Assembly: GCA_018865545.1 (NCBI GenBank)
Contig: GCA_018865545.1_3633.2
Origin: a phage
DNA: 54,480 nt
Strand: one strand, 5' to 3'
Shown: positions 3,882-33,261 of the stretch, in pieces
Layout: every line of letters begins with the position of its first letter
How positions within the stretch are numbered: position 1 is the stretch's first letter
Made by a program: the position numbers and the translations under genes
Notes under the pieces: model-generated
What the model was told of the DNA's origin: nothing
Databases searched by the model: none
Seen by the model: only the letters and a program-made list of their open reading frames with translations

Positions 3882-4148
3882 TTATTGTTTATTTTCTTGC
3901 CAGGTTAGGACACCTAGCCAGAAATGGCAATCACCTTTCGCCCATTGTGGTATATTGCTTTCTTTCCCACCTTCCCGCGCCCAGGAATAACCGCCCGTGT
4001 AACTTTGCAATTGATAACTATCCTCGACCTTATAATCTGACAGGCTGAGAACTGTTTCTACCTTTAAGCCCGTTGCGCTCGCTACCTGGTGGATAGTTCC
4101 CCCTTGCCAGCCTAACGCGTGCATAAGGTGCAATGTGGTCGTGGTCAT
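3882..4148 (-). CDS. hypothetical protein (isolated minus-strand gene)
   Basis: 88-aa ORF; AGGA RBS 9 nt upstream; possible divergent promoter TTGCCT-16-TATAGA; hairpin GCCCGGGGGTCGGGC downstream. Confidence 0.4.
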   Translation of the reverse strand: MTTTTLHLMHALGWQGGTIHQVASATGLKVETVLSLSDYKVEDSYQLQSYTGGYSWAREGGKESNIPQWAKGDCHFWLGVLTWQENKQ

Positions 4149-4956: not shown

Positions 4957-5046
4957 AAGTACTTGCATTCAGTTTTAAAATAGTACTATACTACTACAAC
5001 AACAGGACGGGGAACCGCTCCCCGTCACATTCAGGAGATCATCAAA

Positions 5047-5265
5047 ATGGCTAATATCCGCACATTGTTAAAAAATGCAAAGCAAGTTTTATTTTCTGAC
5101 GACGAATATTTTAATTGCAATATCAAAGGCGTTCGGAACATCGAGGATGTAAAGGATTTATTTGGAATAAAAGGTAATGTATATCGTAAAGGGTTACACG
5201 GCAATCATCTTGAATATAAGTTAGCTGATAGTGATTATAATTTTACTTTGACAATTATTTCATAA
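5047..5265 (+). CDS. hypothetical protein
   Basis: ORF track; AGGAGA RBS; preceded by GC hairpin 5006-5028. Confidence 0.5.
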   Translation: MANIRTLLKNAKQVLFSDDEYFNCNIKGVRNIEDVKDLFGIKGNVYRKGLHGNHLEYKLADSDYNFTLTIIS

Positions 5266-5330
5266 AACCACTTGCAAAGTTATATAGTCCTGTTATACTA
5301 CCAACATTGACAAACGAGAGGTAAATAAAA

Positions 5331-5687
5331 ATGGCAATCCAGGCAATCATGTTAGAACTTACAGACTTCCGTAATACTGTAAAAAATTTAACCAAAAAAC
5401 AGGTTGATAATATTATCAACGGATACCGTAGCAAGATTAAAGATCTTCCGCTTAAACGCGATCAACATGCGGCTAATATGATGCTTGACGCTATGATCAA
5501 AAAGATGATTCAGTGCGATCTTACTCTGGCTTATGAATACGCTGGCGATCTCTTTGTAACGTATAATAAGCCAGTGCCAGGCATGTGCACCACGGAAGAA
5601 TTGCACGCCCTGAATCTAAAACAAGATGCATGGGATAATATGCGCCGCGTTATGGTGTGGGCAGAAAGCGGTAAAATTTATCAATAA
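5331..5687 (+). CDS. hypothetical protein
   Basis: ORF track; GAGAGG RBS; upstream TTGCAA-16-TATACT promoter-like sequence. Confidence 0.55.
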   Translation: MAIQAIMLELTDFRNTVKNLTKKQVDNIINGYRSKIKDLPLKRDQHAANMMLDAMIKKMIQCDLTLAYEYAGDLFVTYNKPVPGMCTTEELHALNLKQDAWDNMRRVMVWAESGKIYQ

Positions 5688-5689
5688 AG

Positions 5690-5735
5690 ATAGTTGTCTT
5701 TTAGTTATGCCGTGGTAGAATACACGGCATAGATA
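5690..5735 (+). promoter_or_regulatory. promoter TTGTCT-16-TAGAAT with palindrome ATGCCGTG/CACGGCAT flanking the -10
   Basis: Direct inspection; near-identical element at 10280-10325. Confidence 0.45.
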
Positions 5736-5763
5736 AGAGAAACTACTTATCAGAGTTTAAAAG

Positions 5764-10279: not shown

Positions 10280-10325
10280 AAGTAGTTGACTTTTACTTAT
10301 GCCGTGATAGAATGCACGGCATAGA
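10280..10325 (+). promoter_or_regulatory. promoter TTGACT-16-TAGAAT with palindrome GCCGTG/CACGGC flanking the -10
   Basis: Near-identical to the element at 5690-5735. Confidence 0.45.
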
Positions 10326-10374
10326 TAAGAGAGACGGCACAAGCCATTGATTAAACTTAAAGAGGTAAATTATC

Positions 10375-17414: not shown

Positions 17415-17553
17415 CTATAACTAGTAGTACTGCCACGAATACCAACCAAAAGAGATAAGCATTGCCAAAAATGGTTGTTGGAAACACAACAATAAACAAA
17501 ACAATCAGTACGACAGGAACCCCGATACACAAATTCTTCAGCACTTCCTTCAT
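17368..17553 (-). CDS. small membrane protein
   Basis: ORF track; two hydrophobic stretches. Confidence 0.35.
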   Translation of the reverse strand: MKEVLKNLCIGVPVVLIVLFIVVFPTTIFGNAYLFWLVFVAVLLVIGVGLGAAIREKYDFW

Positions 17554-17555
17554 AA

Positions 17556-17876
17556 TTACAAACTAACCTCTTTCTTCGGCAATGGCTGAAAACATGGTGG
17601 TAATTCACCACCTAACGACCAACGTAGAAGATTATTATATCCTGGGAGTCTCTTGATACCACCTTCTCCTTTATACACCCACGGAACAAGCGTAGATTCA
17701 AATTTTCTCTCACCTGTCTTTGACTCGTACAATAGCCACATACCTTGGGTATTGGTTCCTGTATCCGTCCAGTTTATCTGCCAATCTGATGTTCCCACTA
17801 ATTCGAAATTGTCTGTTTCTTTCTTTTTCTTAAACCATCCAAACATTACTCTATCCTCACTGATACGTAGCGCCAT
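17556..17876 (-). CDS. hypothetical protein
   Basis: ORF track; true start may be the internal Met (MFGWFKKKKE). Confidence 0.45.
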   Translation of the reverse strand: MALRISEDRVMFGWFKKKKETDNFELVGTSDWQINWTDTGTNTQGMWLLYESKTGERKFESTLVPWVYKGEGGIKRLPGYNNLLRWSLGGELPPCFQPLPKKEVSL

Positions 17877-18003
17877 GTTCTTTTGTAATATTCCACAGTT
17901 TCCTCCAGTTTGTCAAGAGGAACTCTAGTTTTCAATACCCACCAGTTCCCTAGATATTCGGCAGAACATGCACTCATCCTGCCACATATGGTATACGTTG
18001 CCA

Positions 18004-18204
18004 CTACATCCTCCACGTTAGTTTCTGAGCGATCTCCAACAAGGCATCTATCTTATGCATATACTCTTTCCTTTTCTCACTGCCAGGAGGGAATTGGTCT
18101 CTCGTTTGCATCAAGGTTTTTATCTCTTCAGACAGATGATTAAGGATTTCAACGCGCTCACGTTTTCGACCTAGTTGCTCAATTTCTTTATCACGACAAT
18201 TCAT
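18004..18204 (-). CDS. hypothetical protein
   Basis: ORF track. Confidence 0.4.
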   Translation of the reverse strand: MNCRDKEIEQLGRKRERVEILNHLSEEIKTLMQTRDQFPPGSEKRKEYMHKIDALLEIAQKLTWRM

Positions 18205-18214
18205 AATACACCCT

Positions 18215-18252
18215 ACAGTGTTGTCAAACTATGAGAGTATGATAATATATGG
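18215..18252 (+). promoter_or_regulatory. promoter TTGTCA-16-TAATAT for the isolated plus-strand gene
   Basis: Hexamers at 18221-18226 and 18243-18248. Confidence 0.45.
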
Positions 18253-18283
18253 TGCAACAACTTACAATAGCAGGAGACGATTT

Positions 18284-18565
18284 ATGACTGTGAAAATACC
18301 TAAAGGCGGCAGATCAGATAGAAATGCATGTGACATGCGTGTAAGGGTAGGGAGAATGTGTCTAATTTATGGAATAACTTATCCACCAATGGTGCGACTT
18401 AATGGTAAAATATGTAAGGTCATCGACATACCAAAAGATAACACAACACGCTTCTTGTGCAAGGTCAAAGATGAAGAGAAGGTTTTTAACATCCCACACA
18501 AAAACCTAACAGTTTTGGATCTTAATGACAACATTGTTATCTCCAAATACCGTTGCATAAACTAA
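18284..18565 (+). CDS. hypothetical protein (plus-strand gene embedded in the minus-strand cluster)
   Basis: ORF track 18218..18565; start moved to ATG18284 behind AGGAGA RBS; own promoter and terminator. Confidence 0.45.
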   Translation: MTVKIPKGGRSDRNACDMRVRVGRMCLIYGITYPPMVRLNGKICKVIDIPKDNTTRFLCKVKDEEKVFNIPHKNLTVLDLNDNIVISKYRCIN

Positions 18566-18598
18566 AATAAAAGCCCCATGCGGGGCTTTTATGTTTAT
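18565..18598. terminator. bidirectional rho-independent terminator
   Basis: AAAATAAAAGCCCCATGCGGGGCTTTTATGTTT: 7-bp GC stem flanked by A-tract and T-tract, between convergent genes. Confidence 0.65.
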
Positions 18599-19335
18599 TC
18601 AAAATCATCAACACCGCTATCGGTAAGGTTTTCTCTGCTCGAAGGTTTTGTCGAAAGAACTTGCTCAAGCAGAGAGGAAAATTTCTGCAAATTACTTATA
18701 GAGGAAGTCTCTGTTGCCATGGCAAGCATATCCACTTCTTTTTCGGTAGGTTGCGTCCAGTCTAGAAACATCTCTTTCATGTACAACGTTGATGTCCCTA
18801 TTGGTGTGGCGAGGTCAACCCTATCAGCATAGACCCAGAAAAGAACTTCTTTCTCTATACATACACACAAAGCAGCACCCAACGAGTATCCTGTAACGAG
18901 GGATGGATATCTTGCAACGAGGATCTCGACATTCAGGTCATCCCAGTGAAATACAACACCCAAACACTTCATATCCACAATGTCTTCCACTGCGGGTTTT
19001 AGCTCCTCATGGGAAGAAAGGGAGTCATAGTTAATATTCTTTATGAATTTAAGAACGTCTTGGCGGTTGTAGGCACAATCGTTATCACCTTGCTTCCAGT
19101 AACCCCAAAATGAAGTCGATAAATTCAACCAAAAACTTGCAGTTGTCCCTAATGTCTCAGCCAGTTTTTCAGCCACATCTTCTGATACTTCTTCCATGTT
19201 ATATAGGATAGTTCTTAACTTATTTACAGGTATACCAGATCTGTCGGCAAGATCATCCACACACCAACCTAATGGATCCAGATATTCGTGGATAATAACC
19301 TCCCCTGGTGACACTGGTGCTCTTTCTTTCTGCAT
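18595..19335 (-). CDS. HigA-like HTH (antitoxin family) protein fused to a C-terminal domain of unknown function
   Basis: Start at ATG19335 behind AAGGAGAG RBS; N-terminus PVSPGEVIIHEYLDPLGWCVDDLADRSGIPVNKLRTIL..AEKLAETLGTTASFWLNL matches the HigA/VapI HTH pattern; about 150 aa follow with no recognised motif. Confidence 0.55.
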   Translation of the reverse strand: MQKERAPVSPGEVIIHEYLDPLGWCVDDLADRSGIPVNKLRTILYNMEEVSEDVAEKLAETLGTTASFWLNLSTSFWGYWKQGDNDCAYNRQDVLKFIKNINYDSLSSHEELKPAVEDIVDMKCLGVVFHWDDLNVEILVARYPSLVTGYSLGAALCVCIEKEVLFWVYADRVDLATPIGTSTLYMKEMFLDWTQPTEKEVDMLAMATETSSISNLQKFSSLLEQVLSTKPSSRENLTDSGVDDFE

Positions 19336-19388
19336 TCTCTCTCCTTTCTCTCTACCAGAAAACCCTGCAAAGCAGGGTTTTGTTACTA

Positions 19389-19592
19389 TCAGCATTTAGG
19401 CGAGCATTTATCGCACGGGCATGAAATTCCGTGGAAACACAAACCTGTTCCGTCTTTCTTGACCCCTGTTCCACCACATTGGGGACAACTATCGTGTAAG
19501 CATTTTGTTTTTGTTGTCTCCTCTTTATCTTTATTAAAGAAGTTTTTCATAATCATTTTCTGTTGTTCAATCGTAAACATTTGCGTCCCCAA
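19389..19592 (-). CDS. small Cys-rich zinc-finger protein (CxxCxGxG type)
   Basis: ORF track; CLHDSCPQCGGTGVKKDGTGLCFHGISCPCDKCSPKC. Confidence 0.45.
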   Translation of the reverse strand: MGTQMFTIEQQKMIMKNFFNKDKEETTKTKCLHDSCPQCGGTGVKKDGTGLCFHGISCPCDKCSPKC

Positions 19593-19873
19593 AATCTTTC
19601 AAGTGCTTCTACCTCTTCCATGTTTGGGAAGATACCATAGAAACAGAACTTACCTTTAGAGAAGTACGGAATAAATACCCGTGCATCAGATGTTTGAAAC
19701 ATCTTGTCAAAATTTGGTAGCTTCAGGTGGGATTTTATAGCCTCTTTAATACTTTTATCCCATTGATGCTGCCATTTGCAGGCTTTTAGGTACTCACTAA
19801 TATTATAAGAACCTACTCTCCCCAAGATACTGGTGAGAAACTTTTTGTTTTTACGAATAATCTTCTTTTTCAC
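19553..19873 (-). CDS. hypothetical protein (paralog of upstream gene)
   Basis: ORF track; N-terminus MKKKIIRKNKKFL resembles MKKKLVRRNKLFL of 19851..20156. Confidence 0.4.
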   Translation of the reverse strand: MKKKIIRKNKKFLTSILGRVGSYNISEYLKACKWQHQWDKSIKEAIKSHLKLPNFDKMFQTSDARVFIPYFSKGKFCFYGIFPNMEEVEALERFWGRKCLRLNNRK

Positions 19874-20156
19874 TCAAAAACCTCGTTTCTTCAAACTGCT
19901 CTGGTGTCAATAAACTTGTTCCTACACGACTGCCATTGCCACACATAATGGGCACGGCAATCATGTGACTATCCTTTTCTGCATTACCTAAATCAAGGTA
20001 CTGCCCATAACGTTTGATAAGTCGAAGGCTCATTTTTGAATTAGCTAAAGCCCTTGTATTATAGAGATAATCCTCAAGGTACAAATGTAGAGCGTTTGCC
20101 ACCTTTAGAGATTTTGATAAGAATAATTTATTACGCCGGACCAGTTTTTTCTTCAT
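19851..20156 (-). CDS. hypothetical protein (paralog)
   Basis: ORF track. Confidence 0.4.
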   Translation of the reverse strand: MKKKLVRRNKLFLSKSLKVANALHLYLEDYLYNTRALANSKMSLRLIKRYGQYLDLGNAEKDSHMIAVPIMCGNGSRVGTSLLTPEQFEETRFLSEKEDYS

Positions 20157-20349
20157 GCAACCCTCGCTTGTGCCTGTACATTGCTAAAGGCCATACAGAA
20201 CTCACTATAAAGCATTTCCATGCCCAACCCCATGGAGTCTTTGGTGCATAAGCTCGTTCAAGCCATTTACTCTTTTCCATCTCTGCCGTATGTACAAACC
20301 ATACGGCAATATACAGTGCAACTATAATGTAGATAAAGCCATTAATCAT
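20131..20349 (-). CDS. small membrane protein
   Basis: ORF track; hydrophobic N-terminus. Confidence 0.35.
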   Translation of the reverse strand: MINGFIYIIVALYIAVWFVHTAEMEKSKWLERAYAPKTPWGWAWKCFIVSSVWPLAMYRHKRGLHEEKTGPA

Positions 20350-21403
20350 TCATCTTATCCCAACACATTTGTTGTGCTGTCATCAAAACATCGGCAGCAA
20401 AGTTAAGATCTGTTGTCTTCGGTAAATGCGTGTTCTTGTACAGAGTGTTACGAATATAGTCATCCTTCTCTTCTGCCCAAGCCAAGAGCTTCTCCAAAGA
20501 CCATGCACCATTCCTGATTGCAAGAAGCTCCTGAGCATCAGGTCTTTTTACTAAGACTTTACCTTCTGCTAGGATCTCCTCAGCCATACGCATCAATCTT
20601 ACCAAATGGATGGCATGTTTGCAATCGTACCCGTACTTTTCTTCTAAGTCATGCCGGACCGGATTTCTGTTTTCAACCCATGTCCAGTAGTTCTTATGCT
20701 TTTCCTTTGCTTGTTTATGGTCATCTGCTAGATACTTAACGATTAAAATTGGTTTACGTTTCTTATCCTCGCCAGAGAACTGTTCGTATGGGACTTTACG
20801 AATAGAGCCGTCAGAGTTAAACAAGCCAGCATTGTCGTGTGTTCCGATCACGCCATAGATATTATCACCCATTGGTAAAAAGACACACAACTTGTTAAGG
20901 TCATCCAGCATTTTCTGGAAGTCTTTGTGTTTTGTAAGATTATCATCCATCCACGAGTGTGTCAAGCGCATGAACTCTTTTTGTGTTGGTTGCTCTTTAG
21001 GCTGCGGGTTATTAATCCATTTATTATGGCCTTTGATACGCTTCAGTTGCGCCATCGCGTACCCAGAAAAAGTAAAAGCAACTTTGCTGGATAGGAGTTT
21101 TGGCGCTTGCTCGCGTAGGTACTCGTAAACATCTGAAGTTTGCAGAATGTCACCTCTATCAACAAACATAAGCTCGATGATGTTTGGGTTCATATCAACG
21201 AACAACTTCATGTAGTTTGTTAGCTCATACAGTTTACCATCCTCTTCATCAATAAGAGTCATTTCTCTGTCAACGAAAAACGGGGTAAGAATGCTTTTAG
21301 GCTCTGCACAATAAATTCCGCGAATATCCACATCAGATGTTGGTAAGTTAGTTCCATAGGCAATACTACCACTGTAGCAGCGCATTAGTTCTAGTTTCTT
21401 CAT
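20342..21403 (-). CDS. Pol-beta superfamily nucleotidyltransferase, function unknown
   Basis: N-terminal motif GSIAYGTNLPTSDVDIRGIY fits the G[SG]..D.D NTase signature. Confidence 0.55.
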   Translation of the reverse strand: MKKLELMRCYSGSIAYGTNLPTSDVDIRGIYCAEPKSILTPFFVDREMTLIDEEDGKLYELTNYMKLFVDMNPNIIELMFVDRGDILQTSDVYEYLREQAPKLLSSKVAFTFSGYAMAQLKRIKGHNKWINNPQPKEQPTQKEFMRLTHSWMDDNLTKHKDFQKMLDDLNKLCVFLPMGDNIYGVIGTHDNAGLFNSDGSIRKVPYEQFSGEDKKRKPILIVKYLADDHKQAKEKHKNYWTWVENRNPVRHDLEEKYGYDCKHAIHLVRLMRMAEEILAEGKVLVKRPDAQELLAIRNGAWSLEKLLAWAEEKDDYIRNTLYKNTHLPKTTDLNFAADVLMTAQQMCWDKMND

Positions 21404-23228: not shown

Positions 23229-24485
23229 TTAGAATAACATATCTCTGCTGATTGCTTTACGAATAGCATCAATACGGGCTACTCGCACAGCTTCACCAAT
23301 CTCTTTACCCTTCTTACCTTTTTCCAGAAGGGGTTTTGTTATAGCTTTAGAATCAACTTTTGTCATAGCATCGTAGGCTTCCAACAAAATATGACCCTGA
23401 GGATAAGGTTTATGTCTAAAATCACCACCTCTTCCTTTAGCATCACAATAACACGCATCTGCAAGTGTGTAAACCTTTATTTTCTGATCAGCTTGTCCAG
23501 CAGCTTCAAATATTTTCATGATGCTTTTTGGTTTCAAACCGTTGTTACCATCTCTGGGGGAGATGGCGTGCACTTTTGTGTGATTTTCCGCAACATATTT
23601 TGCCGTGTCACGATAGATATTATAAATCTTCAACCTTTCACACAAGGATTGGATAACATCTACACCAGCTTTCTCATGACCATGAAGATTACCATTGTCC
23701 TTGTAAGTTATAGCTTTGCCAAAATCATGGCACAGCACAGCAAACTTGGTCAGTGGATCAGCCCCTAATTCATCAGCAACCCGTAACGCTAGAATTGTAT
23801 GGGTGTAAGCATCCCCTTCTGGGTGATGTTCTTTAGGTTGTTGCACACGACGTAGGGCTTCCAGTTCAGGAAGTTCGCCAATACGTCCCATATTGACAGC
23901 AAAAGATCTGAAATAACCACTCTTTAAGGCTTTCAACATTTCCTTCCATTTACGCTCGGCGCTTATTTCTGCCAAAGAGTGTCGGTTGTCATAAGCCAGT
24001 TTAAAAGTTTCTGGATGGATATGCCACTCTTCCCCAAGCTGGGCTTTAAATCTAAACAGGCGTAGAATACGTAATGGATCTTCAATAAATGCCTGCGATG
24101 TATGACGTAATGTTTTAAGTCCTAAATCAACTTGACCACCAAAAGGATCAATAATCTCACCACTGTCAACATCCATCGCCATGGAGTTGATGGTTAGATC
24201 TCTACGTGCCAAATCCTCTTCCAGTGTTACATCTGGACTAAAGCATACCTCAAATCCTTTATGGCCTTCGCCTGTTTTTCTTTCTGTGCGTGCAAGAGCG
24301 TACTCTTCTCTTGTTTCTGGGTGAAGATAAACTGGAAAAGATGCGCCAACTTGTGTGAACCCTCTTTTCAACATCTCTTCATGCGTAGCGCCAACAACAA
24401 CATAATCACGGTCTGATAATTCACGACCCAGCAATTTATCTCTTACTGCACCGCCTACTAAGTATACCTTCATTTCTTCGCCCAC
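23229..24485 (-). CDS. cca: tRNA nucleotidyltransferase (CCA-adding enzyme) with HD domain
   Basis: N-terminus MKVYLVGGAVRDKLLGRELSDRDYVVVGAT..YALARTERK closely resembles bacterial Cca; HD-like region ALLHDIGK-type (LCHDFGK). Confidence 0.85.
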   Translation of the reverse strand: MGEEMKVYLVGGAVRDKLLGRELSDRDYVVVGATHEEMLKRGFTQVGASFPVYLHPETREEYALARTERKTGEGHKGFEVCFSPDVTLEEDLARRDLTINSMAMDVDSGEIIDPFGGQVDLGLKTLRHTSQAFIEDPLRILRLFRFKAQLGEEWHIHPETFKLAYDNRHSLAEISAERKWKEMLKALKSGYFRSFAVNMGRIGELPELEALRRVQQPKEHHPEGDAYTHTILALRVADELGADPLTKFAVLCHDFGKAITYKDNGNLHGHEKAGVDVIQSLCERLKIYNIYRDTAKYVAENHTKVHAISPRDGNNGLKPKSIMKIFEAAGQADQKIKVYTLADACYCDAKGRGGDFRHKPYPQGHILLEAYDAMTKVDSKAITKPLLEKGKKGKEIGEAVRVARIDAIRKAISRDMLF

Positions 24486-30065: not shown

Positions 30066-30539
30066 TTAAATCTCCTCTTTCCACAAACCATCTTTTTTAA
30101 CCCACATTCTTTGGTTATCAGAACCCCTGAACCTTTTGGTTGTGGGCTTAGACATATCATACTTACCATCTATAACAATGTCAACAAGATTCTTAATTCT
30201 TTCAGGTATTTCTTCAAATAAATACCCTGTCCACAGCCAAATGTTTTTATCATCTCCGTAAACTGACCGTACCTTTAAAATAATCTTTATAACACCATCA
30301 ATATTTTGCGGATCAAGTGGTTCCCCACCTAAAATTGAGAGTCCTTTTATTTGCTTACGTGCCAAATCCTTTATAATTCTATCTAAGTGCTCATCTGTAA
30401 ACACTTCGCCATAGCTGTATGACCAGGCTCTTTGGTTAAAGCAGCCGCGACAACCATGACCACAACCGCTAACCCAGAGGGAGCATCGCACTCCCTCCCC
30501 GTTGATCATATCTGTTGGTTCATAACCGCAGAAATTCAT
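30066..30539 (-). CDS. nrdG: anaerobic ribonucleotide reductase activating protein
   Basis: Radical-SAM cluster motif CGHGCRGCFN; adjacent to nrdD exons. Confidence 0.8.
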   Translation of the reverse strand: MNFCGYEPTDMINGEGVRCSLWVSGCGHGCRGCFNQRAWSYSYGEVFTDEHLDRIIKDLARKQIKGLSILGGEPLDPQNIDGVIKIILKVRSVYGDDKNIWLWTGYLFEEIPERIKNLVDIVIDGKYDMSKPTTKRFRGSDNQRMWVKKDGLWKEEI

Positions 30540-30940
30540 GTATGTTTCACTCTCTCCACAACTTCTTGCATCTTACCCTTGTTATAAGGACGGCTGTTTG
30601 GAGCAGACAAATATCCAGACACACGTCTAATCACACTTATTGTTTCTTCATCATGATTGCCACAAGAAGGACACTCGAACCCCTTAGCTGTGGCCTTAAA
30701 TTCACCAGAGAAACCACACTCGTGACACCTATCTACAGGTTGATTTATACCAAAATAAGGGATGTATTCATATCCATAATCCACTAAGGCTTCCAATGCT
30801 TGCATGTTGTTTTTTAGATTAGGAACTTCCACATAACCTATGTTGCCACCATTACTTATCTCAGCAAACCCACATTCATAATCCCATTTGAAGAATGGAT
30901 CAGACGTTTTCCACACTGGTTGATGGAACGAGTTTGTCAA
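30536..30940 (-). CDS. nrdD: anaerobic ribonucleoside-triphosphate reductase, exon 3 (glycyl-radical C-terminus)
   Basis: Zn-ribbon CHECGFSGEF..CPSCGN and glycyl radical motif RRVSGYL; 5' boundary approximate (frame open upstream to about 30955). Confidence 0.75.
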   Translation of the reverse strand: MTNSFHQPVWKTSDPFFKWDYECGFAEISNGGNIGYVEVPNLKNNMQALEALVDYGYEYIPYFGINQPVDRCHECGFSGEFKATAKGFECPSCGNHDEETISVIRRVSGYLSAPNSRPYNKGKMQEVVERVKHT

Positions 30941-31300
30941 ATAATCTCTTTCAATTAACCCAGGATATGCTTCTTTAAGTTTTGTGGCAAATTTATAACA
31001 CAGAGATTCTGCCGATGTACCGCTGCTTTCGCAGTATTTTTACGGACTAGACTATATCACGATCTTGTGACCACTCACAAGACCCTCCACATTTCGCCAT
31101 TCAAGGCTACTCTACTCGCTTCTTCACATCAGGTGAGGCTGATGCTATGCTTTCGATAGTCGTTAGAGACAATTTCTTGCCTACGGGGTTAGCTCTGCCC
31201 CAACAGGGTTTAGCCTTTCTTAACAGCTTATTGTTTATTCAGCTATGCCCGTTTAGTGGAGTTATTCGACAACCATCACTGGTTGAAGGCCCAATTGTGT
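30941..31300 (-). ncRNA. group I intron (ORF-less) in nrdD, boundaries approximate
   Basis: Separates exon 2 from exon 3; on the coding strand contains AACGACTATCGAAAG (P7 5'-like) and AAGATCGTGATATAGTCTAGTCC (P7 3'/P9.0-like). Confidence 0.55.
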
Positions 31301-32391
31301 CTAGGCGTGCCATATAAGCTAAATGCTAAACCACTTCGCTCTTTAAAATCAGCACAAATATCCTTCATGTATTTCAAGATATTCATTGCCATCTCTTTAC
31401 GAACTGGTTCGCCATACAAAATTTCAACTGCTTCATAAAGACCCACATAGCCAATACTGATTGATGCGTAGCCATTAAAGAAGAGTTTACTAATCTTTTC
31501 ATCAGGTCCAAGTCGTGCAATAGCCCCTTCCATAAACATTGTAGGGTTCTGGGAGGCTTTTACATCCATCAATCTACCGACTCTAACCATATGCGCTTTA
31601 TATGCCATTTCCATGTGCTTTTCAAGCAATTCGGTAAACAGAGTTTTCTTAGATTTTGCTTCTGCTGCAATCATAGGCAAGTTTAGAGAGACAACACCAA
31701 GATTGAATCTACCGTCATATTTCTCACCATGTTCTGTTGCATAATAAGATAAGAAACTTCTACAGCCCATGCTTGTAACACGCCCGTCTGAAGAACCTGT
31801 TACCTTTTTATTCAACGGGACAGATATGAAATCTGGATAAATCCTTTCAACACAACACTCCATAGCTAATTGCTTTAAGTCGTAGTTTGGATCGCCAGGC
31901 TTCATGTTTACCCCATCTTCCAAGAAGAAGATAACTTTTGGAAAAACAGGTGTGACTTTATCTTTGCCAAGTCCGTTCTTGTGAACAAGAAGATAATTCT
32001 TTGTAATCATTCTCCCAAAATAGGAAGTATCAAGCCCAAGGCTCAAGGTAATAAATGGGCATTGACCGTTAGCACTCATCAAGGTATTTACCTGATAAAG
32101 CAATGTCTGCATAGCATCGTAAACATCTTTTTCCGTCATCTGCATAGCTACACCTTCTGGGTCTGGCAGCCATTGCTCCTGACAAAATTTTAGATTTTTA
32201 TCGTAACTTGCCTTGGCATATTGTTTTAATCCTTCGTCAATATGAGTGTATGACTGACCACCATACTGTGCCGAAGAAACTGCTTGGGATATCTGGCTAA
32301 GAATCGTACAGGCGACACCTATTGATTTTGGTTTTTCTATTTTTGCGTTGCCAATTTTAAAACCGTTCTCCAACATACCCCTGTAATCCAC
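31276..32391 (-). CDS. nrdD: anaerobic ribonucleoside-triphosphate reductase, exon 2
   Basis: Central NrdD-like body ending near FSLYGTP; the last 8 codons and stop (RHNWAFNQ*) are probably intron read-through. Confidence 0.8.
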   Translation of the reverse strand: MDYRGMLENGFKIGNAKIEKPKSIGVACTILSQISQAVSSAQYGGQSYTHIDEGLKQYAKASYDKNLKFCQEQWLPDPEGVAMQMTEKDVYDAMQTLLYQVNTLMSANGQCPFITLSLGLDTSYFGRMITKNYLLVHKNGLGKDKVTPVFPKVIFFLEDGVNMKPGDPNYDLKQLAMECCVERIYPDFISVPLNKKVTGSSDGRVTSMGCRSFLSYYATEHGEKYDGRFNLGVVSLNLPMIAAEAKSKKTLFTELLEKHMEMAYKAHMVRVGRLMDVKASQNPTMFMEGAIARLGPDEKISKLFFNGYASISIGYVGLYEAVEILYGEPVRKEMAMNILKYMKDICADFKERSGLAFSLYGTPRHNWAFNQ

Positions 32392-32757
32392 AAGACTACA
32401 GTTGAAGAGCGGACTTATTAGGTAATCTAAATCCTTGATTTTCCTACATTTTTGCAGGCAATGACTATATCATAATCTCGAAAGAGATTCTCTGCTTTTC
32501 AACTGGTAGCGTCTCCAGCTTACTCCCGAAGGATAGTCGATACACATAACGAAGTCTCACTCAGAATTATTATCTTCACGGAATGATACTTCGTCTTAGC
32601 ACGGTATTACCTTGCCCCTTAGCCGAAGGGTTTAGGCTCCCTTACTCATAATGCAGTCACCTGCTTCTGAACCGTTAGCACAGTTTTTACTGCACACCGC
32701 TTTGCAATCAGCGTTAACAGAGTTATTCAATACTGATCACTCAGTAAGGCCACGATG
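32392..32757 (-). ncRNA. group I intron (ORF-less) in nrdD, boundaries approximate
   Basis: Separates ATP-cone exon from exon 2; coding strand contains GTATCGACTATCC and GATTATGATATAGTC, the same GATATAGTC block as the second intron. Confidence 0.55.
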
Positions 32758-33261
32758 TTATTCATGGATATGACCATACCCATTTGTATGCCATTCAGCT
32801 AATTCTTTTGGTAGAATTTGAGTTAGTGAAACGTGCTTGCTAAGGATACCAGCGAGAAGATCACGATGGCTACTAACCACCCCACTTGGTTTATTAGCGT
32901 TTTCTTTAGTAAATTCATCGGCAGTTTGTTCTAAGAATCCCGTAATATCTGCAAACAGCTTCCCTTTACATTCCCTAACGTTATCACGCGTTTTACGATA
33001 TTCAATATAAACCCGTGCTGCATTTTTGAGGTCAAGATCCATTAGTGAATCTTCCACAATGCGGTGAATATCACAAACAGCCACTTTCTCTTGTGGTGGT
33101 TCTGATTTTTCCAGAGTTCCCCAGACTTGCTCGCCAACTGCACATGCCAGAGGATATGATTTCTCACCATAACCAGCAGCAATCAGAGCAGCTTCTGCCG
33201 CTCTAATAACTTTCACACCATCATAATCTTCTTCACGCCCATCACGTTTAACAACTTTCAT
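32758..33261 (-). CDS. nrdD: anaerobic ribonucleoside-triphosphate reductase, exon 1 (ATP-cone)
   Basis: MKVVKRDGREEDYDGVKVIRA ATP-cone start; ends GYGHIHE just before the intron. Confidence 0.75.
   Translation of the reverse strand: MKVVKRDGREEDYDGVKVIRAAEAALIAAGYGEKSYPLACAVGEQVWGTLEKSEPPQEKVAVCDIHRIVEDSLMDLDLKNAARVYIEYRKTRDNVRECKGKLFADITGFLEQTADEFTKENANKPSGVVSSHRDLLAGILSKHVSLTQILPKELAEWHTNGYGHIHE

Follow-up and report, generated by a model that had tools for sequence, protein, structure and literature searches.

We analysed a 54,480-nucleotide stretch of phage DNA (NCBI GenBank assembly GCA_018865545.1, contig GCA_018865545.1_3633.2; "the window" below) which carries on its minus strand a gene for a 246-residue protein in which a HigA/VapI/YbaQ/GraA-type helix-turn-helix (HTH) is fused to a C-terminal domain restricted to the Vequintavirinae (Table 1). 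The gene is convergent with a small plus-strand gene encoding a 93-residue KOW-like protein. The explanation which we prefer, tentatively and at somewhat below even confidence, is a lineage-specific domain fusion, as opposed to a classical antitoxin, resembling the bifunctional protein AcrIIA1, in which an ancestral accessory domain would have acquired a DNA-binding, regulatory HTH. Judged by nucleotide similarity the window is that of an Avunavirus-like Vequintavirinae phage, with positions 17500-20500 showing 94.8% identity to Escherichia phages Av-05, TH18, 18-1-2, 19-1-2 and 24-2-1.

Table 1. Coordinates in the window of the fusion gene, the convergent gene and their associated signals
Feature	Position	Strand	Basis
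Fusion gene (HTH and C-terminal domain), 246 aa	18595..19335, stop codon included	-	Open reading frame, ribosome binding site, TH18/18-1-2 annotation, phrog_1381
HigA/VapI/YbaQ/GraA-type HTH, residues 1-84	19084..19335	-	TIGR02607, PDB sequence matches
Short linker and Vequintavirinae-restricted C-terminal domain, residues 85-246	18598..19083	-	phrog_19128, standalone homologues, AlphaFold2 (AF2) model
Inverted gene, basic protein of 93 aa, isoelectric point (pI) 9.6	18284..18565	+	Ribosome binding site, homologues, predicted fold
Sigma-70-like promoter of inverted gene: TTGTCA, 16 nt, TG-n-TAATAT (extended -10)	18221..18248	+	Consensus match, conservation
Candidate restart promoter for leftward genes: TTGTAA, 17 nt, TATCAT	18239..18267	-	Consensus match only
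Bidirectional intrinsic terminator, 11-bp stem, T-runs on both sides	18567..18592	both	Folding
Perfect 10-bp inverted repeat with 3-nt loop, AAAACCCTGC-TTT-GCAGGGTTTT, then TTTTCT	19359..19381	-	Palindrome enumeration

The fusion gene and its two domains

The longest minus-strand open reading frame runs from 18595 to 19395 and would encode 266 residues, and a preliminary description of this DNA had taken the gene to extend to 19395. This reading frame exists; the extension is probably unused. The ATG at 19335 is preceded at 5 nt by AGGAG (19341-19345) and yields the 246-residue product annotated in TH18 and 18-1-2, whereas the ATG at 19395 sits on the 3' end of the upstream gene, which stops at 19389, and lies ahead of a hairpin. 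Based on the spacing of the ribosome binding site, the annotated product and this overlap, ATG 19335 is most likely the start. The phrog_1381 profile matched the whole fusion protein (7.4e-88), while phrog_19128 matched residues 116-241 of the 266-residue frame (7.3e-09).

The N-terminus scored 57.4 bits against the NCBIfam model TIGR02607, "HigA family addiction module antitoxin" (cutoff 47.7), and matches to Pfam HTH_3 and HTH_26 were below their cutoffs. In PDB sequences it matched YbaQ (6e-12), VapI (8e-09) and GraA (1e-08), and the predicted HTH fold, of moderate model confidence, resembles solved HigA/VapI structures. The PGE and TT..FWLNL motifs of the HigA family are kept and the recognition helix retains N38, K39 and R41. 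The HigA/VapI-type HTH proposed in the preliminary description was thus recovered by both kinds of search, and the refuting condition named there, failure of the N-terminal domain to align with the HigA family, did not arise. The further statement that the remainder of the protein carries no recognised motif also held, as the C-terminal domain of approximately 162 residues had no match in Pfam or PDB sequences.

Searches for more distant relatives of the C-terminal domain were equally empty. No convincing relative of its fold was found among solved structures, and phmmer against 1.84 billion representative proteins gave no credible relative beyond its own cluster. Two long repeat proteins found by phmmer (P0005, P0006) were rejected as repeat-inflated matches to the T/G-rich repeats of about 80 residues of secreted proteases. 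When known anti-defence families were considered, Pfam, PDB and BFVD gave orthologues at most and PADLOC a single weak match at chance level. The AF2 model of the domain consists of three helices, a six-stranded antiparallel sheet, two helices and one strand, with predicted local distance difference test (pLDDT) values mostly of 70-87. The model of the fusion protein superposed on an independently predicted homologue from SSE121 with a template modelling (TM) score of 0.67, and the only BFVD matches were the Av-05 and SSE121 homologues.

The origin of the C-terminal domain was indicated by tblastn, where a hypothetical protein encoded by Seunavirus phages (4MG, GAP31, PVP-SE1, SPLA5a and others) aligned with residues ~82-228 only. 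This homologue is a complete standalone protein of 164 residues located at the same syntenic position, and alignment showed that the entire standalone protein is present in the fusion, after a linker of about 10 residues. When uncultured relatives are included with Seunavirus, the standalone homologues have 164-172 residues. A profile search of 5.8 billion proteins returned 25 clusters which, short fragments aside, were either standalone proteins of 160-172 residues on phage contigs of 140-160 kb or fused proteins of 243-246 residues, and each of the latter had 88% identity or more to the window protein. In phage genomes tblastn found the full-length fused architecture in 6 records only, all Avunavirus-like, and an IMG/VR scan returned known isolates only. 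Since the domain stands alone in sister lineages while the fused forms are all this similar, the HTH is a recent addition. On this comparative evidence the C-terminal domain is the ancestral, older part and the HTH an N-terminal addition of the Avunavirus lineage. The KpS8 protein gp176 was considered as a divergent form of the domain and rejected (hhalign probability 0.2%); it corresponds to the HNH/endonuclease VII-like upstream gene.

Conserved residues of the C-terminal domain lie mostly in the hydrophobic core, and as no catalytic motif is conserved among them it is probably a binding protein. The standalone proteins sampled are mildly acidic to near neutral (pI 5.6-7.8); the fusion protein has a pI of 4.4 and a net charge of -21.

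The ratio of nonsynonymous to synonymous changes (pN/pS, Nei-Gojobori counts over four genomes) was 0.12-0.20 for the fusion gene. By part it was 0.03-0.16 for the HTH and 0.11-0.48 for the C-terminal domain, and the small plus-strand gene gave 0.11-0.17. By these values all three are functional coding sequences, with the HTH the most tightly constrained, and both genes are under purifying selection. The values also disfavour a decaying or functionless accessory gene in which the fusion is accidental, an explanation which we regard as very improbable; none of the six phage records, nor the metagenomic clusters, shows a broken frame. Such decay could account for the in-frame loss of 7 residues in Av-05 and of 3 in P0003 from a loop modelled with low confidence, for a frameshift of the small gene in Av-05, and for a truncated variant of 190 residues on a 13-kb contig (P0004). 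A second truncated or frameshifted metagenomic variant has 95 residues (P0027). The truncated variants may mean that the fusion gene is dispensable in some hosts, or they may be assembly errors.

The identity of the HTH brings in another explanation, that of an orphan antitoxin or decoy, where the HigA-type domain would neutralise a HigB/RelE-family mRNA interferase of the host or of a plasmid and so block toxin-antitoxin (TA) based abortive infection, with the C-terminal domain adding stability or a second activity. We consider this unlikely, even though the HTH exceeds the equivalog cutoff of the HigA model and the whole protein is strongly acidic, a trait of many antitoxins and decoys. Toxins paired with antitoxins of the GraA/VapI subfamily contact the folded HTH itself, on the side facing away from the DNA (PMC6393540), so that an orphan HTH could in principle still bind a toxin; the GraA/VapI antitoxin being a fully folded HTH, the toxin-binding surface could be retained. 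Phages are known to carry orphan antitoxins against other TA systems, for example the DarG-like AdfN (PMC11825919). In addition, the RNA-repair-type enzymes encoded nearby (an RlaP nucleotidyltransferase and a CCA-adding enzyme) form a neighbourhood compatible with the countering of RNA-damaging host toxins. However, type II antitoxin-toxin recognition is usually highly specific, and no cognate toxin could be named. The closest genuine HigA proteins are only ~38% identical and are encoded on small enterobacterial plasmids, where each of the two examined lies directly after a RelE/ParE toxin gene, and identity to E. coli YbaQ is ~30% (33% by hand count over the aligned stretch). A DNA-level search of E. 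coli genomes with the HTH segment gave no match. No HigB/RelE toxin gene is present nearby and, as the preliminary description had noted, there is no toxin gene among the neighbours, which encode proteins of 67 and 66 residues and the convergent 93-residue KOW-like protein. The fusion partner, an older phage protein with a function of its own, also argues against a simple antitoxin.

The convergent gene and the shared signals

In annotated relatives plus-strand genes extend to ~13 kb, and from ~15 kb to the end there is a leftward gene block of ~39 kb. In the block of 18-1-2 the orthologue of the 93-residue gene is the only credible plus-strand coding sequence, the other plus-strand call being of 126 bp, and the earlier statement that it is the only plus-strand gene of this block was confirmed to that extent. 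Its description as isolated was not, since the gene is conserved in inverted orientation across four genera or more, also where the C-terminal domain and HTH are lacking. The family comprises 70 phage records over Seuna-, Avuna-, Mydo- and Henunavirus, and at every locus examined the small gene is found a few genes downstream of an RlaP-type nucleotidyltransferase. In the window an AGGAG (18272-18276) is located 7 nt before its ATG.

The 93-residue protein combines a disordered N-terminal KGGR(P/S)DRN..D.RV motif with a predicted five-stranded KOW/Tudor/SH3-like barrel similar to the KOW domains of Spt5/NusG. No KOW motif or Pfam KOW match was obtained among 17 family members, the sole match being the unrelated DUF5641 in one member, and a profile search against PDB sequences gave no match. 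A RelE-like or MazF-like toxin was also considered and was not supported by the fold search. The protein is 38-40% identical to 4MG gp178, GAP31_103 and PVP-SE1 gp173, with which it has the KGGRPDRN..D.RV motif in common.

The small protein is basic in Avunavirus only (pI 9.6, net charge +8.5); in the other lineages it is acidic (pI 4.5-6.2) and contains an acidic loop of about 10 residues which is absent from Avunavirus. In Av-05 (L001, 4785-4991) one extra G in a G-run shifts the frame of the small gene and gives an annotated product of 68 residues, either through a sequencing error or because it is a real pseudogene.

The promoter of the inverted gene was previously described as a consensus promoter. 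A promoter-like site is indeed present, and it is near-consensus, matching 9 of 12 consensus positions in addition to its extended -10 element. It is identical in Av-05 and TH18 and conserved in the metagenomic contig L008, and analogous promoters precede the orthologous inverted gene in PVP-SE1 (TTGACT-17-TATGAT, annotated) and KpS8 (TTGATT-17-TATACT). The promoter scan overall was at chance level (9 found, 8.3 expected). The candidate leftward promoter overlaps the plus-strand promoter at the -10 boxes, and a divergent promoter pair is annotated at the equivalent place in PVP-SE1.

The two genes have a terminator in common, as had been proposed, which fills the 29-nt gap between the convergent stop codons. 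It folds at -19.2 and -19.3 kcal/mol on the two strands (z = -5.5 and -4.5), and a terminator pair is annotated at the equivalent place in PVP-SE1. In TH18 (L002, ~4066-4095) the stem is identical and the 4-nt loop reads GCAT instead of the ATGC of the window, so that the hairpin as a whole is flipped, a small loop inversion in phages that are otherwise nearly identical.

In Av-05 (L001, ~5000-5430) and L008 (4733-5094) an insert of ~360 bp (362 bp) replaces the common terminator and alters the final codons of the small gene. Stop codons occur in all six of its frames, and it carries a promoter-like TTGCAT-17-TATACT and a strong terminator of its own (GGCCAAGA...TCTTGGCC-T6). It gave no Rfam match and has no relative in the window, and a relationship to the two intervening sequences of nrdD (see below) was tested and rejected. 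An extended promoter motif, AGTATGRTAWAMT, which the window seemed to have in common with the insert, showed no enrichment in the former (3 found, 0.87 expected). The insert may represent a mobile element or the gene of a small non-coding RNA.

Local searches with hidden Markov models located the C-terminal domain gene directly convergent with the small gene in Seunavirus, where a terminator lies between the inverted orthologue and the domain gene, in Avunavirus, in the uncultured L020 and, weakly, in L017. It was absent beside the small gene in KpS8 (Mydovirus), Hena1 (Henunavirus) and L019, so the small gene is independent of the domain. In the genomes compared, the domain gene, where present, is always the convergent neighbour of the small gene. 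This constancy, over four to five lineages and down to identities of 20-30%, would fit a two-gene module in which the acidic fusion protein and the basic KOW-like protein interact, in a toxin/antitoxin-like manner or as a partner switch, and the convergent layout causes transcriptional interference. The opposite charges of the Avunavirus pair (pI 4.4 and -21 against pI 9.6 and +8.5) and the single terminator for both genes point the same way. However, the small gene persists without the domain in the three genomes named above, the charges are complementary in Avunavirus only, a strong terminator argues against extensive antisense overlap, and the subfamily is collinear throughout, so that adjacency may be simple inheritance. 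We judge such a module to be improbable.

Candidate mode of action

In the explanation which we prefer, the C-terminal domain derives from an older Vequintavirinae accessory protein, always encoded by the last gene of the leftward early/middle operon and directly convergent with the KOW-like gene, and in the Avunavirus lineage it gained the N-terminal HigA/GraA-type HTH. The C-terminal domain would carry the ancestral activity, most likely the binding of a host or phage macromolecule, while the HTH would dimerise, bind DNA and tune transcription of the locus that encodes it. It might bind at the palindrome at 19359-19381, just ahead of the ribosome binding site, or at 18221-18267, where the divergent promoters overlap. 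The analysis establishes the identities of the domains, the history of the fusion, the synteny, the purifying selection and the lack of a toxin gene; that the protein binds DNA and regulates itself, and that its C-terminal domain acts as an effector or in counter-defence, is what we infer.

GraA contacts DNA through Pro39, Asn42 and Arg46 (PMC6393540), which align with N38, R41 and Y45 of the phage HTH, and DNA binding by the latter is plausible, not assured. Several observations weigh against the proposed role. Over the aligned stretch the phage HTH is unusually acidic, with a net charge of about -7 compared with -3 for YbaQ and 0 for VapI, and a basic residue following helix 3 which is present in all compared relatives is replaced by Met-Glu-Glu; these features could weaken DNA binding. 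The palindrome at 19359-19381 is the only candidate operator, yet it resembles an ordinary terminator hairpin. Enumeration of inverted repeats in the window and two control regions, with a search for the hairpin half-sites, revealed no recurring palindrome, and the divergent promoter region contains no inverted repeat of 5 nt or more. The AF2 model of the fusion protein has a mean pLDDT of 64.6, which is moderate confidence only. The hairpin itself is fully conserved in Av-05 and L008 and lies between the upstream stop codon (19389) and the ribosome binding site of the fusion gene; the simplest reading of it is that of an attenuating terminator or a 5' untranslated region hairpin.

Repressors most commonly combine an XRE-type HTH at the N-terminus with a C-terminal domain for oligomerisation or sensing, and the protein could then be a plain phage transcription factor which represses or activates phage promoters such as those at 18221-18267, its C-terminal domain having no other role than these. 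The gene adjoins a compact region with two promoters which seem to share -10 boxes and, as already noted, the HTH is its most constrained part. We nevertheless find this explanation unlikely. The C-terminal domain occurs without the HTH in sister genera whose genomes hold no HigA-like gene, and is thus not merely a dimerisation module; HigA-type HTHs dimerise unaided (PMC6393540). An equal layout of promoter and terminator is found in Seuna-, Mydo- and Henunavirus without the HTH, and the absence of an inverted repeat from the promoter region counts here as well.

Two further variants were considered together: that the fusion protein and the convergent KOW-like protein form a phage two-component module, or that the fusion protein is a dual counter-defence factor, with the HigA part a decoy antitoxin against abortive-infection toxins of the HigB/RelE type and the C-terminal domain blocking a second host target. 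We give these a low probability, and continue to prefer, tentatively, an accessory domain fused to a regulatory HTH.

Gene neighbourhood and relation to known systems

The leftward block of annotated relatives contains genes for nucleotide metabolism, a CCA-adding enzyme, PhoH, a ligase and a Sir2-like protein. The 67- and 66-residue proteins encoded by neighbours of the fusion gene belong to PHROG families without assigned function. The former, directly upstream (19389-19592, minus strand; phrog_17149), is Cys-rich (CPQCGG...C..C.CDKC) and probably a zinc ribbon; in Seunavirus its position is occupied by an HNH/endonuclease VII-like gene. Just upstream on the same strand are genes for an RlaP-type nucleotidyltransferase (20342-21403; PF10127, a family associated with RNA repair) and a CCA tRNA nucleotidyltransferase (23229-24485). 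No tRNAs were found in the window, and an Rfam scan of the window gave no family at the gathering score and nothing significant in 17900-19700.

Further away, the anaerobic ribonucleotide reductase gene nrdD (30536-33261, minus strand) is represented by three open reading frames corresponding to positions 1-46, 62-415 and 440-562 of Pfam NRDD. These are split by two intervening sequences which contain no open reading frame, one of 366 bp (32392-32757) and the other of 335 bp (30941-31275). The first gave a weak full-length match to the group I intron family RF00028 (17.6 bits, E 0.17, 32442-32773), and the two may be small self-splicing introns. In the plus-strand block near-identical hairpins with half-sites TATGCCGTG and GCGGGGA occur between genes at 5706-5740, 10298-10332, 10787 and 11320; they probably represent repeated copies of one kind of intrinsic terminator.

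Residues 1-84 of the fusion protein are the family HTH of the HigA/VapI/GraA/YbaQ antitoxins (TIGR02607, COG3093; PDB 2eby, 3trb, 6f8s, 6chv). Unlike those antitoxins, which are single-domain proteins of ~95-140 residues, the phage protein has 246 residues with an unrelated C-terminal domain of 162, its gene has no HigB/RelE toxin gene upstream and belongs to an operon of a virulent phage, and its HTH is more acidic, with Glu in place of the basic residue after helix 3.

AcrIIA1, one of the Aca-Acr fusions, is a bifunctional anti-CRISPR protein with a GraA-like HTH and an effector domain which represses its own promoter. Its HTH is reported to be most similar to GraA 6F8S (PMC9410906), which the phage HTH also matches by sequence, and both proteins have a GraA/HigA-like N-terminal HTH followed by a C-terminal domain that is not an HTH. 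The C-terminal domain of the fusion protein is unrelated to that of AcrIIA1 or to known anti-defence families.

The identification of the HTH is already in databases, since the fusion protein is a member of PHROG 1381, "plasmid antitoxin with HTH domain", and the Av-05 orthologue bears this RefSeq name. PHROG 1381 also includes standalone HigA-like proteins of jumbo and temperate phages (phiR1-37 g309, D6, FBKp24). The other phage matches cover residues 1-88 of the query only, and among the PHROG 1381 phage matches the C-terminal domain accompanies the HTH in the Avunavirus group alone. The name "putative pirin" given to the fusion gene in GenBank KM190144 found no support.

In Seunavirus, PVP-SE1 gp172, 4MG gp179 and GAP31_104 (PHROG 19128) are the orthologues of the C-terminal domain and gp173, gp178 and GAP31_103 (PHROG 13562) those of the small gene. 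Like the pair in the window, the two Seunavirus genes are convergent, lie downstream of the RlaP nucleotidyltransferase and have the promoter and the terminator. The Seunavirus pair differs in that the HTH is absent, identity is 26-32% for the C-terminal domain (38-40% for the small protein, as above) and the charges are different; all of these proteins are annotated as hypothetical. A literature search found no description of the fusion history, of the restricted C-terminal domain family PHROG 19128 or of the convergent KOW-like partner PHROG 13562, and the fused architecture seems to be undescribed.

The locus is a well-delimited and experimentally tractable conserved gene pair, which will not surprise specialists. 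If HigB-type toxins were neutralised by the protein, the locus would clearly exemplify the capture of a type II antitoxin domain by a phage, and should the dual counter-defence factor prove true, no earlier example of a virulent phage using an orphan antitoxin of the HigA family would be known. If the protein is instead an autoregulator joined to an effector, PHROG 19128 would become a new candidate host-interaction family with PHROG 13562 as its constant neighbour, and the rule by which an HTH signals an anti-defence gene, so far one of temperate phages and plasmids, would be extended to the large virulent phages of the rV5-like kind.

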